NCBI GenBank assembly: GCA_965215195.1
Contig: CBDCDC010000001.1
Coordinates: 576,001-640,000 of the forward strand
DNA length: 64,000 bases
Direction of reading: 5' to 3'
DNA from: Candidatus Latescibacterota bacterium
GTDB lineage: Bacteria > Latescibacterota > UBA2968 > UBA8231
The notes under the pieces are model-generated. The model had not been told where the DNA came from, searched no databases, and saw only the letters and a list, made by a program, of their open reading frames with translations. Below, in pieces: positions 57,864 through 62,491 of this stretch; the first letter of the stretch is position 1, and each line of letters opens with the position of its first letter. A program made the translations under genes and the position numbers.

Positions 57864-58008
57864 TGAAATCGCAATACGCGCTCTAATTAACGGACGTTAC
57901 GCCCTTTGCGGTCGCCGGGGAAACGACGCCTCTGCGTTCATTGCGTTCATCGGCGGATACCCTATCGGGCGCAACATCACGAAGTAAATTGACTAACGAG
58001 AAGGTGCT

Positions 58009-58383
58009 GTGGCTGTAACAATTATGCGTACGGTGCGGCCTAGTCCGCAATGGCAAGACAGCTTGATCCGGCTAGAGAGCGGCCAGCGGGTCGTGGTGGA
58101 TGCCGAGGAAACTTGGTCGCCGGACATGCGCAACCAAATCGCTTGGTGCGGTGCCGATGGCGTGTACAACCTGCCCGCAGACTCGGGGTACTTACTGCCG
58201 GGGGCCAACGTCGGGGCACTCGTGGCCCGCATTGGCACCGGGCCGATCTTTGCCGTGGGCAGCCGCTGCGACTTTGTCGCCGACCGCGCCGGCATCCTGC
58301 ACTTGGCCATGAACGAAAACCCGGACTTCAACAACCAAGCCGGCAAAATCGTCGCCCAAATCATCGTCTTTAGCCAACCATGA
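58009..58383 (+). CDS. LecA/PA-IL-like beta-sandwich (putative lectin) protein
   Basis: WQDS.I....GQ.V...A..TW, GALVARIG, FAVGS, G.LHLAMNE..FNNQAG pattern. Confidence 0.55.
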   Translation: MAVTIMRTVRPSPQWQDSLIRLESGQRVVVDAEETWSPDMRNQIAWCGADGVYNLPADSGYLLPGANVGALVARIGTGPIFAVGSRCDFVADRAGILHLAMNENPDFNNQAGKIVAQIIVFSQP

Positions 58384-59417
58384 GCCTCGCCGGCCGCACG
58401 GCGACCGCAGCCTATGTGCGCGCTGGGCATCCGCCCGTCCGCGCGCTCGCTCCGCTCGCCGCAGGAGTCTGGCGCATCGACGACGCAGCCGGTCGCAAGG
58501 TCGTGGTTAAACATCAGCTCTTCGGGCGGCTAACGCAGGGTACGGCTTTCGACCTGTTGGAGGTTGAGCGCGAAGTGCTCGGGTTCCTGCGTGCAGACGG
58601 ATGTCCGGTGCCCGCGGTCCTCGGCTTAGACCCAGACGCCCACTGCATCTTCTTGCAATGGGTCGGCGATCGCACCCTCGACGACGCCATTCAGGACGGA
58701 GACCAAGCCGCGACCACGCAGGCCATACGCGGGCTGTGCGCCATTGAGCGAACGTGCGCCCAACGCGCCGATCAGCTAGGGCCGAGGGTGGTGCCGAGCG
58801 CCAATCGCACGGCCCTCGCCGCTGCCTGGGACGAGGCCGGGGAGCGGGCATACGCTGGAATTGAGCAGTTGTGCAGCCGCCTCCAGCGGCCCTTGGACGC
58901 CGGAATGCGACCGCTGCTCGAAGCCATGCACGCCTATCTGGCGGCGCGACCGGCCGCGTTGGGCAGCGTAGATTACAACGCACGCAACGCAGTCGTTGAG
59001 CCGGGGGGAACGCGCATCTACTTCCTCGAATTTGCCAAAATTGGTTGGGACTGGACGGAACGGCGCTTGACGCAGTATACTACTAGCATGGGCAGCGGCC
59101 GGCAGGACGGGCGCATGTGCTCGCTGCTGGACGCGCCGGCCGCGCGTTTGTACGCCGAGGAGTCCGGGCGCAGCGATGGCGCACGGGCGCTCGATTATCA
59201 CCGAGTCTTTTTTCTTCTCAACAGCGCGGCCTTGTTGTGCGCGGCCCTCGATGGCGAGCCGCACGCGCTGGCCCTGCGTCAACGCTGGAAAAGGCCCTAT
59301 GCGCGGCTGCGGCAATGCGCGGCCATGCTGGCCGAGGGCCTGAGCACGGACCCAAGCGCGGCCGAGTTCAGAGGCCGGTTGCAATTTTGTACATCACCAC
59401 GCGGAGGTACCCTATGA
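58380..59417 (+). CDS. APH/phosphotransferase (kinase-fold) family protein, divergent
   Basis: VVVKH, EREVLGFL, VPAVLG, DYNARN catalytic-loop-like motif, FLEF. Confidence 0.65.
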   Translation: MSLAGRTATAAYVRAGHPPVRALAPLAAGVWRIDDAAGRKVVVKHQLFGRLTQGTAFDLLEVEREVLGFLRADGCPVPAVLGLDPDAHCIFLQWVGDRTLDDAIQDGDQAATTQAIRGLCAIERTCAQRADQLGPRVVPSANRTALAAAWDEAGERAYAGIEQLCSRLQRPLDAGMRPLLEAMHAYLAARPAALGSVDYNARNAVVEPGGTRIYFLEFAKIGWDWTERRLTQYTTSMGSGRQDGRMCSLLDAPAARLYAEESGRSDGARALDYHRVFFLLNSAALLCAALDGEPHALALRQRWKRPYARLRQCAAMLAEGLSTDPSAAEFRGRLQFCTSPRGGTL

Positions 59418-59680
59418 GCGAGTGGAACACGCTTGACTTCAAGCCCCGGGCCCGGGGTATGATCATCGGCGATATTCCCTGGCTGGCGCGCATAGCCGAC
59501 AAGGCGCGGGCGCACCAGCAAGAGCGCATCGGCGACTACGTATTTCCCTGACCGGCCGACATGCGCTTCCTGGAGGAAGTGGAGCTGACAGCCGCAGCAT
59601 TTGCAGAGATGGTGGCCGCATCCGCAGATGACGATGCACTGATCGAAAAGATGAAAGCGCACTTGGCCGGAAAGCACTAG
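59414..59680 (+). CDS. Candidate selenoprotein, DUF5069-like (88 aa, TGA at codon 46)
   Basis: RBS GGAGG, ATGA overlap with the upstream gene; WLARIADKARA...IGDYVFP-TGA-PADMRFL; frame continues to TAG one base before the next ATG. Confidence 0.75.
59552..59594 (+). promoter_or_regulatory. Putative bacterial SECIS hairpin
   Basis: CGCUUCC-UGGA-GGAAGUG stem-loop with apical loop 19 nt after UGA and G in the loop; basal CGGC/GCCG pairing. Confidence 0.6.
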
Positions 59681-59681
59681 C

Positions 59682-60569
59682 ATGAGCACCCCAGCGCAAA
59701 CAGCGCGCAGACCAAGGCGGAGAGTGCGGGAGCTGGAGGTGGAGGTCGTCCACGTGCGCCGCGACACCCCAGACACCACCACGCTCTTTATGTCCACTGG
59801 CGACGAGCCGATCGAATACGAAGCCGGCCACTTCTGCACCATTGATCCCCATCAGTTCGGCGAGTTGGAGCACTTCACCGCCTATTTAGAAGATCAAAAG
59901 GGGCAGCGGGAAAAGCCGCGGGCCTATTCCATGGCTTCTGCACCGCACGAGCAGGACCTTGCCATCACCATCAAAGAAGAGCGCTACGAGAGCGGCCAGA
60001 CCCCGTACCCGCCGCTGCTGTCGCCGCTCTTGACGTACTACATCCAAGAGGGCCGGCGGCTGGTCATCAGCGGTTTTACCGGGGCGTACACCTTTCCCGC
60101 CGATGTCTGCGAGCGCACCGAGCACATTGTCCACGTGTGCGCTGGCAGCGGCATCGTGCCCAACAGGAGCCTGATCAAGGAGAGCCTGCACCGCGGCGAC
60201 CCGCTCAGGCACACCTTGCTGTTTAGCAACAAGACGCGCAGCGACATCATTTACTTTGAGGAATTCGAGGTGCTGCGGGCGCAGTATCCCGACCGGCTCA
60301 ACGTGATCCACTGCATCACCCGCGAAGACCCAACTGGCATTCGCGGCGCCCGCAACGGGCGCATCTCCGGGGCACTCTTGCGCGAAGTCGCACCCGATCC
60401 CTCCAAGGTGATGGCCTATAGCTGCGGCCCGGGCATCACGCCCTACGAGCGCCGGGCGGCCCGGGCCAAGGGCGAGGTCCCGGAGCCGCGCTTCGTCGAA
60501 AACATGGTCGCACTCTTGCGCACACACGGGTTGGACAAAAATCAGATCCGGCAGGAAAGCTGGGGGTGA
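59682..60569 (+). CDS. Ferredoxin-NADP reductase-like FAD/NAD(P) oxidoreductase
   Basis: RAYSMAS, CAGSGIVP, LLFSNKT, YSCGP, C-terminal ESWG; no Fe-S domain. Confidence 0.88.
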   Translation: MSTPAQTARRPRRRVRELEVEVVHVRRDTPDTTTLFMSTGDEPIEYEAGHFCTIDPHQFGELEHFTAYLEDQKGQREKPRAYSMASAPHEQDLAITIKEERYESGQTPYPPLLSPLLTYYIQEGRRLVISGFTGAYTFPADVCERTEHIVHVCAGSGIVPNRSLIKESLHRGDPLRHTLLFSNKTRSDIIYFEEFEVLRAQYPDRLNVIHCITREDPTGIRGARNGRISGALLREVAPDPSKVMAYSCGPGITPYERRAARAKGEVPEPRFVENMVALLRTHGLDKNQIRQESWG

Positions 60570-61520
60570 ATGAAGTTGATCGTGCAGATTCCCTGCTTTG
60601 ACGAAGAGCAGACCCTGCCCGCTGTAATCCGCGACATCCCGCGCCAAGTGCCCGGCATCGACCAAGTCGAAATTTTGGTCATTGACGACGGCTCCAGCGA
60701 CCGCACCAGCGCGGTGGCGCGCGAGTGCGGTGCCGAGCACGTAATTCGCTTTCCGCACAACCGGGGGTTGGGGCAAGCCTTTAAGGCCGGTTTTGACGCT
60801 TGTCTGCGGCTGGGGGCCGACGTCATCGTCAACACCGATGGCGACAACCAGTACTGCGGCGGCGACATCGGCAAGCTAGTCGCGCCCATCCTCGGCGGCC
60901 GGGCCGACATGGTCATCGGCGACCGGCAGCCGCAGGCCATTGCCCATTTCTCCTTCCTCAAGCGCTGCCTACAGGGCTTGGGCAGCCGGGTGATTAGCCG
61001 CCTCGCCGGCGTACAGGTGCCGGATGTGGCCAGCGGCTTTCGCGCCTTTAGCCGCGAGTGCGCACTCCAGCTTTCGACCTTTACCCATTTCGACCACACG
61101 GCCGAGCACGTGATCGAGGCCGGCTACAAAAACTTGGCCGTGACCTCGGTCGCGGTCCGCACCAACCCCAAGACGCGCGAGTCGCGCCTCTTTTCCAACA
61201 TCGGCAAGTTCGTCTTCAAGTCCGCGGAGATCAGTTTGCGCACCTATGCGCGCTACGCCGCGCTCAAGATATTTGCCACCTGCGGCATTTTGACCTTTGT
61301 CGCCGGCTTTTGCCTCGGCGTGCGCTTTCTCTACTTCTTCTTTTGTACCGACGAAGGGGGGCTGCACGTGCAGTCGCTGATTTTGGCGGCGATTCTGCTG
61401 TTGGCCGGGTTTCAGATGTTTCTCACCGGCGTCATAGCCGATTTGATCGCCACCAATAGGGACTTGCTCGAAGACGCGTTGCAGCGGATCAAGAAGTTGG
61501 AATTGCGGAGCAAAAAATAA
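60570..61520 (+). CDS. Glycosyltransferase family 2 (DPM1-like)
   Basis: IPCFDEE, IDDGSSD, NTDGDNQY, SGFRAFSR, two C-terminal TMs. Confidence 0.92.
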   Translation: MKLIVQIPCFDEEQTLPAVIRDIPRQVPGIDQVEILVIDDGSSDRTSAVARECGAEHVIRFPHNRGLGQAFKAGFDACLRLGADVIVNTDGDNQYCGGDIGKLVAPILGGRADMVIGDRQPQAIAHFSFLKRCLQGLGSRVISRLAGVQVPDVASGFRAFSRECALQLSTFTHFDHTAEHVIEAGYKNLAVTSVAVRTNPKTRESRLFSNIGKFVFKSAEISLRTYARYAALKIFATCGILTFVAGFCLGVRFLYFFFCTDEGGLHVQSLILAAILLLAGFQMFLTGVIADLIATNRDLLEDALQRIKKLELRSKK

Positions 61521-61528
61521 TTTCCCCC

Positions 61529-62491
61529 ATGCAAAAACCTGCGATTTACATAGACGGCCAAGAGGGGACGACCGGGCTGCGCATTCGCCAGATGCTAGCC
61601 GGACGCGAGGATGTGGAGGTGTTGCTCATTCCACCGGCGCAGCGCCGCGATCGGCGCGTACGGGCCGAGTTTCTCAGCCGAGCGGACTTGTGCGTGCTCT
61701 GCCTGCCCGACGACGCGGCCGCCGAGGCCCTCGCCTTGCTCGAAAACCCGCAGACCAAGGTCATCGACACGAGCACGGCGCGCCGGGTCCATCCCGAGTG
61801 GGTCTATGGGCTGCCCGAGATTGCACCCGCGCACAAAGAGCGGATTCGCCGCGCACAGCGAGTCGCCAATTGCGGTTGTTATCCGGTCGGCTTCATTCTC
61901 GCCGTGCGGCCCCTCATCGCACAGGGGCTGCTCCTGCCCACTGCGCCGCTGGCCATCAACGCGGTGTCCGGCTATTCTGGCGGGGGGCGCACGATGATCG
62001 CCGAGTACGAAGGAGAGGGCGGGCACAAGCCTTTCTGCCTGTACGGCCTCGATGGCGCGCACAAGCACTTGCCCGAGATGTGGAAATTCAGCGGGTGCGA
62101 AAAGCAACCGCTCTTTGTGCCGGCCGTCGATCATTCGTTCTGCGGCATGGTCGTCAGTACGCCGCTGGCCGCGGAATTTTTCGCCCGTCCCCGCGTCAAT
62201 CGCCAAGCAGTGTACGAGGTCTGGCGCGCGTACTACGCAGACTGTCCCTTTGTGAAGTTGATCGAGCCGCAAGACGCCGTCCTGCGCGACGACAAGTTCC
62301 TCGACCTAACCGAGTTGAGCCACACCAACTTCGTCGAGCTATCGGTCTGGGGCGACTCGGAGCGGGGGTTGGTTTTGGTCGGGCGGCTCGACAACCTCGG
62401 CAAAGGGGCGTCGGGCAATGCCGTGCAGTGCCTCAACTTGATGCTCGGCTGCGACGAAGCCGCAGGGCTAGGGCTAGATGCTGGTCGATAG
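61529..62491 (+). CDS. argC: N-acetyl-gamma-glutamyl-phosphate reductase (short type)
   Basis: IDGQEGTTGL, IDTSTA, GCYP, SGYSGGG, LDNLGKGASG. Confidence 0.95.
   Translation: MQKPAIYIDGQEGTTGLRIRQMLAGREDVEVLLIPPAQRRDRRVRAEFLSRADLCVLCLPDDAAAEALALLENPQTKVIDTSTARRVHPEWVYGLPEIAPAHKERIRRAQRVANCGCYPVGFILAVRPLIAQGLLLPTAPLAINAVSGYSGGGRTMIAEYEGEGGHKPFCLYGLDGAHKHLPEMWKFSGCEKQPLFVPAVDHSFCGMVVSTPLAAEFFARPRVNRQAVYEVWRAYYADCPFVKLIEPQDAVLRDDKFLDLTELSHTNFVELSVWGDSERGLVLVGRLDNLGKGASGNAVQCLNLMLGCDEAAGLGLDAGR

Follow-up and report, generated by a model that had tools for sequence, protein, structure and literature searches.

A predicted selenocysteine-containing DUF5069 protein and its gene cassette in uncultured Latescibacterota

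Is the TGA that interrupts a small open reading frame of a Candidatus Latescibacterota bacterium a stop codon, or is it read as selenocysteine (Sec) in a protein family which has not been counted among the selenoproteins? The question arises from a window of 64,000 nucleotides, i.e., the whole stretch of DNA that was analysed, from an organism for which metagenome assemblies are the sole source of knowledge. The default list of open reading frames ends the frame at position 59551, while an initial annotation, made from the letters of the DNA, proposed that it continues and encodes a Sec-containing DUF5069 protein, with the UGA at a conserved cysteine and a SECIS-like hairpin behind it. This proposal is supported by the family match of the product, by the pairing of TGA and Cys at one aligned column, by the hairpin and by the selenium machinery of the genome, and the stretch 59414-59680 is, judging by these sequence data, very probably one gene for an 88-residue DUF5069 selenoprotein in which UGA is read as Sec.

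A DUF5069 gene that continues across an in-frame TGA

The coordinates of the gene and of its surroundings are collected in Table 1. The start codon (59414-59416) shares the letters ATGA with the TGA stop of the upstream gene (59415-59417), to which the DUF5069 gene is translationally coupled, and after codon 46, the TGA in question, 42 further sense codons follow up to a TAG at 59678-59680. The gene thereby comprises 88 codons plus the stop codon, carries the motif Y-V-F-P-U-P-A-D around Sec46 and leaves a single base before the next ATG (59682). In the initial annotation this layout (GGAGG ribosome-binding site, ATGA overlap, TGA at codon 46, 42 further codons, TAG) had been described correctly in every item, and its translation of the read-through product is identical to the recomputed one.

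Table 1. Features of the predicted selenoprotein gene and of its two partner genes (positions in the window)
Feature	Position	Strand	Basis
Upstream partner, 345 aa, aminoglycoside/choline-kinase-like fold	58380..59417	+	AF2 and Foldseek; no Pfam match
Shine-Dalgarno-like GGAGG	59404..59408	+	Direct sequence reading; 5 nt 5' of ATG
Predicted selenoprotein gene, short-form DUF5069, Sec at residue 46	59414..59680	+	Pfam, orthologues and dN/dS
UGA, predicted Sec codon 46	59549..59551	+	TGA/Cys pairing at the aligned column in homologues
Predicted bSECIS hairpin	59564..59581	+	7-bp stem 59564-70/59575-81, loop UGGA 59571-74; covariation
Downstream partner, 295-aa FNR-like flavoprotein reductase (NAD_binding_1)	59682..60569	+	PF00175, E 3.4e-14

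When U is read as C, the read-through product (P0001) matches PF16798 (DUF5069) with an E-value of 2.6e-12 and a score of 47.5 bits (cut-off 27), and the match, from residue 11 to residue 84, bridges the TGA. Because the match spans only positions 4-77 of the 133 profile positions, the product is regarded as a short form of the family. No Pfam family other than PF16798 was matched, nor any NCBIfam model at E<=0.01, the NCBIfam selenoprotein models included. The only solved relative is 3omd (profile E 3.4e-12), an uncharacterised protein of Leptospirillum rubarum, which reads DKARAH...GEYTYNCPLD and whose cysteine aligns to U46, in agreement with the DUF5069 motif that the initial annotation had given (LPRxxDKARA...GEYxYxCPxD, with the UGA on the Cys). 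An AlphaFold (AF2) model of the selenoprotein, based on an alignment of 48 sequences (pLDDT 87.8), superimposes on 3omd with a TMq of 0.78 and an rmsd of 1.1 A over 73 columns at 32% identity. The two proteins share the fold and the motifs DKARA and G-[DE]-Y-x-Y-x-C-P-x-D, whereas 3omd has 145 residues and a Cys, the window protein 88 residues and, as predicted, a Sec. As a structural-genomics entry 3omd has no function attached; it is the sole Foldseek match of the model, further hits lying at E > 4, and a comparison of the natural Cys homologue P0002 with protein clusters returned DUF5069 clusters only, without a functional lead.

Sec46 takes the place of the single conserved cysteine of DUF5069, a residue which 47 full-length homologues from databases share almost without exception at this column. 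Of the best 149 of 476 family representatives, 108 have C here, 15 have S, three N, three G, and one each W, A, D and K, while 16 of the best 149 stop ahead of the column, 12 of them exactly at ...YxYP; these 12 are gene models truncated at the TGA. As serine occupies the column in 15 of these 149, neither Cys nor Sec is essential throughout DUF5069. A paralogous frame of 437 aa in the same genome (G000:C1:824487-825740, minus strand, loci L024-L026) comprises three tandem DUF5069 domains (99, 94 and 80 bits), which at the Sec column read G-D-D-S, G-A-D-S-S and G-E-D-S, without Cys; frames of 430-470 aa which resemble it are present in most of the 41 related genomes. Taken together with the serine-bearing representatives, this paralogue indicates that Cys/Sec chemistry may be a trait of a subfamily and not of the family as a whole.

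The TGA itself is widely conserved, together with the sequence on both sides of it. Among the 41 related genomes, 36 have an orthologue whose frame is interrupted by exactly one TGA, a single genome (G025) has one with Cys, encoded by TGC at the Sec column, and four have none; the 36 consist of genome G000, 22 of the 24 other genomes of the same genus and 13 of the 16 from other families of the class. In a survey of the phylum, an orthologue is present in 119 of 168 species-level genomes (E<=1e-15), with one TGA in 104 and a sense codon instead in 15. All 119 fall within four families of one class, and at the same threshold none of the 36 genomes from ten other families of the phylum has an orthologue. 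A search with the family alignment retrieved 80 public loci, of which 65 have TGA, 14 have TGC or TGT and one does not match the search motif; among the taxa in their record titles are Latescibacterota, Gemmatimonadota, Poribacteria and Planctomycetota. The Poribacteria loci (L121-L139) carry forms to which the window protein is ~45-60% identical, and all have both the TGA and a UUCC-UGGA-GGAA core downstream. A tree built from 77 distinct sequences after masking of the site needs four changes between Sec and Cys, three of them forced by strongly supported branches, a count which is rough because the alignment behind the tree has only 80 columns.

As a side observation, the genes of loci L062, L073 and L081 are 89-93% identical to the window gene and are titled Gemmatimonadetes or Alphaproteobacteria, while most near-identical genes bear the label Latescibacterota. 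Since genes of 92-93% identity bear different phylum names, some of these labels of metagenome-assembled genomes are probably binning errors.

The stem-loop behind the UGA and the selenium machinery

The Escherichia coli gene fdhF is the prototype of the bacterial SECIS (bSECIS) mechanism. In the published bSECIS model, an upper stem of 4-16 bp carries an apical loop of 3-9 nt with at least one G among its two leading positions, usually followed by G or U, the UGA lies 16-37 nt from the apical loop, and the minimum free energy (MFE) is at or below -7.5 kcal/mol (PMC13188914). The hairpin proposed in the initial annotation, CGCUUCC-UGGA-GGAAGUG, was re-read at the place 3' of the UGA that had been given for it; it begins 12 nt past the UGA, runs through the codons for R-F-L-E-E-V and agrees with the published model. 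Its loop of 4 nt, UGGA, has a G in its second position, with another G after it, and recurs in all 55 distinct Sec forms; its stem has 7 bp in the window gene and 6 bp in many orthologues; and 19 nt (59552-59570) separate the UGA from the loop, a length which is constant in the alignment. The energy of the window hairpin alone is -8.0 kcal/mol, by a measure that may differ from that of the published model (PMC13188914). Energies of -7.5 kcal/mol or lower are reached by the isolated 18-nt hairpin in 26 of the 55 Sec forms and by the 42 nt after the UGA in 54 of them.

The 52-nt MFE (-16.2 kcal/mol) is unexceptional for a G+C-rich sequence when compared with shuffles (z = -0.57), and the significance of the hairpin therefore rests on conservation and covariation, not on energy. 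Across the 55 distinct Sec forms 94.5% of the stem cells are paired, versus 77.9% in shuffled sequences (a value as high occurs in 0 of 500), although this test is inflated because related sequences are not independent; slid partners are paired in 33-70%. Pair 18-31 is C:G in 33 Sec forms and G:C in 22 and is unpaired in none, while pair 17-32 appears as GU in 16, UA in 15, AU in 14, GC in eight and as other combinations in two. The outermost stem pair fails in 18 of the 55. The Cys forms provide a natural control, in which the full stem occurs in 0 of 15 and 73% of the cells are paired, i.e., the level of the shuffles. Part of the stem conservation reflects the peptide F-L-E-E, as the stem lies within the coding sequence: the core UUCC-UGGA-GGAA is a perfect palindrome and encodes these four conserved residues as well. 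With an invariant palindromic core and covarying flanks, the element would be a clean case of one stretch of RNA that serves both the protein and recognition by SelB.

The machinery for the insertion of selenocysteine is present in the genome, with selA (559 bits), selB (344 bits), selD (383 bits) and a tRNA-Sec (71.9 bits) all above their curated cut-offs, the last with the anticodon tca according to ARAGORN. Among the 41 relatives, selA is found in 40 and selB in 39. Genome G038 (91% complete) has no selA, no selB and no DUF5069 orthologue; in G024 (75% complete) the TGA form is present and selB was not found. The SelD frame of the genome (locus L012, G000:C2:2619321-2620244, plus strand) appears to be a selenoprotein itself, with U in GGU-ASK, and contains a second TGA near its end (…LVEPU…) which is probably its real stop.

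From the gene, its Sec/Cys pair, the conserved and covarying hairpin and this machinery, all of them found by computation, we infer that selenium is actually inserted. SelB together with Sec-tRNA(Sec) would bind the mRNA hairpin at 59564-59581 and deliver selenocysteine to the UGA at 59549-59551, whereby the ribosome would go on to the TAG at 59678-59680.

Alternative readings of the UGA codon

Were the TGA a true stop, the product would be a peptide of 45 residues, and the 42 codons behind it would either escape translation or form part of a different element. The default list of frames and the 12 representatives that end at ...YxYP accord with this reading, but the downstream part behaves as coding sequence. 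In the 23 same-genus sequences, all of which have the TGA, codon positions 1/2/3 account for 12/6/35 variable sites before the TGA and for 19/16/30 after it, and dN/dS in five pairs amounts to 0.02-0.17 before and 0.11-0.25 after; the two alternative frames after the TGA hold stops. By these sequence measures, what follows the TGA is under purifying selection. It also aligns residue for residue with the full-length Cys homologues and with 3omd, the Pfam match runs through the TGA, and direct reading finds neither a start codon nor a ribosome-binding site ahead of it, all of which makes termination at codon 46 highly improbable. Less credible still, and barely worth entertaining, is the idea that the TGA arose by a nonsense mutation which made the gene a pseudogene or by faulty assembly, or that it belongs to a reassignment of TGA throughout the genome; all that speaks for it is that a stop lies in frame. 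The same TGA column recurs in the 104 genomes of the phylum and in the Poribacteria loci, and contigs from other runs contradict the possibility, raised in the initial annotation, that the TGA is unique to one assembly. One contig from run X5, which may be the very source of the window DNA, covers 59000-60200 with one difference (59868), while contigs from run X7, from another study, cover the TGA and do not differ there. A contig of 1009 nt from the RNA library X15, 90-95% alike, spans 59253-60200 across three genes and has no difference at 59549-59551 among the differences listed; the contigs over this locus from the RNA libraries X15 and X20 stem from 90-95% relatives and are no proof of transcription. 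A code in which TGA is reassigned is excluded, because both flanking genes, as well as 27 of the 56 long frames in the window, terminate in TGA.

It is also conceivable that the UGA is decoded, stimulated by the hairpin, by a tRNA other than that for Sec (a near-cognate Trp, Cys or Arg tRNA), which would yield a full-length product free of selenium. The identity of the inserted residue is beyond the reach of computation, and the public cluster P0045 (81 aa, 54 members) has W at the column, though apparently as the result of translation with a table in which TGA is Trp. Against such decoding, the column holds Cys and not Trp in the homologues, the loop of the hairpin, the position of its G and the spacing conform to the SelB-type bSECIS model, selA and selB occur in nearly all relatives (as counted above), and the sole relative without both of them is also without the orthologue. 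Decoding by a non-Sec tRNA is thus very unlikely, and the reading of UGA as selenocysteine is preferred in what follows.

Gene neighbourhood, possible function and place among selenoproteins

The predicted selenoprotein gene lies between two conserved genes. For the upstream protein, Pfam contains no match up to E 10, so that its sequence does not place it in a known kinase-like family; NCBIfam contains no match either. Its AF2 model (pLDDT 91.6), however, retrieves 269 PDB chains with Foldseek at E<=0.001, and among the matches listed all are kinase-like phosphotransferases, including corramycin phosphotransferase, APH and homoserine, choline and methylthioribose kinases, with 8agy, 3csv and 4pdy at the top (E ~1e-7, probability 1.00, TM ~0.5). 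Its invariant residues K44, E63, D198, N203 and E217 are, by eye, candidates for the hallmark sites of this fold, namely the Lys/Glu pair, the catalytic-loop D-x4-N and the metal-binding acidic residue; the metal-binding motif F-x-E-F appears, again by eye, to have E where D is usual. On the strength of the model, the protein looks like a member of an undescribed kinase-like family. Its gene is found directly upstream in 54 of the 80 loci, at identities down to 36% and including 12 of the 14 Cys-form loci. The FNR-like gene lies directly downstream in 40 of the 80, and its product shows weak matches to the NCBIfam reductase modules PaaE, Hcr and NqrF, all under cut-off. In locus L095 all three cassette genes overlap end to start; a complex prediction for the kinase-like protein and the Cys-form DUF5069 protein of this locus gave a score of 0.12 (mark 0.32), which is uninformative either way.

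The kinase-like/FNR context is absent in Poribacteria and in 26 of the 80 loci. The neighbours of the Poribacteria locus L122 are UPF0182, PheA and QueG, those of locus L113 a heparinase-like protein, an enolase-superfamily protein and a hybrid histidine kinase, and neither neighbourhood has a gene in common with the window. In the window, a GT2 glycosyltransferase and then ArgC (60570-62491, plus strand) follow the cassette; the GT2 protein most resembles, under cut-off, the AglJ/polyprenyl-phosphate sugar synthases of NCBIfam. As GT2 and ArgC are co-conserved in 40 and 42 of the 80 loci, the syntenic block is longer than three genes. On the other side, a frame of 173 aa (57993-58514, minus strand) diverges from the kinase-like gene and overlaps its listed 5' end. 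It has no Pfam match at E up to 10 and is probably a real gene, given its conservation in 52 of the 80 loci; the overlap of this conserved frame with the 5' end of the kinase-like gene suggests that the true start of one or the other lies further in.

As to function, Sec46 is most likely the reactive residue, since in the model it stands immediately ahead of helix 47-55 and lies within the invariant Y-x-[YF]-P-[U/C]-x-x-D. The absence of the neighbour context in Poribacteria and in some other lineages counts against the function proposed next. Tentatively, the small protein might be a selenol/thiol redox or ligand-carrying component which works with both partners and receives electrons from the flavoprotein, a proposal about which doubt outweighs confidence; to our knowledge, no FNR-family enzyme is a selenol or thiol reductase. 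A more specific and rather improbable proposal is that DUF5069 could form the reactive part of an undescribed three-protein system, in which the small protein would carry or transform a substrate on Sec46, while the kinase-like partner would phosphorylate this substrate and the flavoprotein would reduce it.

The supposition of the initial annotation that the family is not known as a selenoprotein family agrees with the searchable literature. The catalogue of prokaryotic selenoproteins of May 2026 lists 119 families and subfamilies in its Table 1, and PF16798/DUF5069 is absent from all of them (PMC13188914). No paper of the searchable literature contains "DUF5069", and no relevant one was found for PF16798, IPR031849 or 3OMD. 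The main texts of BSepDB (PMC13326102) and deep-Sep (PMC12013277) do not mention DUF5069, although the supplementary tables of either could list the family, and nothing on it was met among the listed papers on selenoproteins of Poribacteria or Latescibacteria. The nearest counterparts are the predicted single-Sec families which have homologues with Cys and a bSECIS inside the gene, such as DUF523, DUF1858, DUF3179 and DUF166 (PMC13188914, Table 1). With these, DUF5069 has in common a UGA at a conserved Cys column, a stem-loop in the coding region directly downstream, in which the two leading loop positions include G and the spacing is 16-37 nt, the dependence on selA, selB, selC and selD, and the truncation by gene callers. 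It differs from them in that PF16798 is unlisted and in that the palindromic core of its stem-loop encodes F-L-E-E; moreover, it has no partner cysteine of the CxxU/UxxC type but a lone Sec in Y-x-[YF]-P-U-x-x-D.

In public protein clusters the gene appears in various forms. Clusters P0059-P0062, P0073-P0075, P0083, P0087, P0088, P0090 and P0154 are cut right past ...YxYP, and in P0054, P0072 and P0115 the C-terminal halves are called as separate small proteins. Since databases thus cut the gene to ~45 residues or translate its TGA as Trp, the use of selenium by these uncultured lineages is under-counted.

What is new here is the predicted Sec form of DUF5069 in a clade of Latescibacterota, together with a conserved cassette of kinase-like, DUF5069 and FNR-like genes. 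With it, a widespread family would join the bacterial selenoproteome, present as the TGA form in 104 of the 168 species-level genomes of one phylum and in Poribacteria. For DUF5069, whose structure is solved and to which no function is attached, no other available clue points to the active residue as strongly as the switch between Sec and Cys, and the conserved kinase-like and FNR-like neighbours are concrete candidate partners. If the three-protein system outlined above were true, uncultured Latescibacterota, together with bacteria labelled as Gemmatimonadota, would possess a selenium-dependent pathway that is new.
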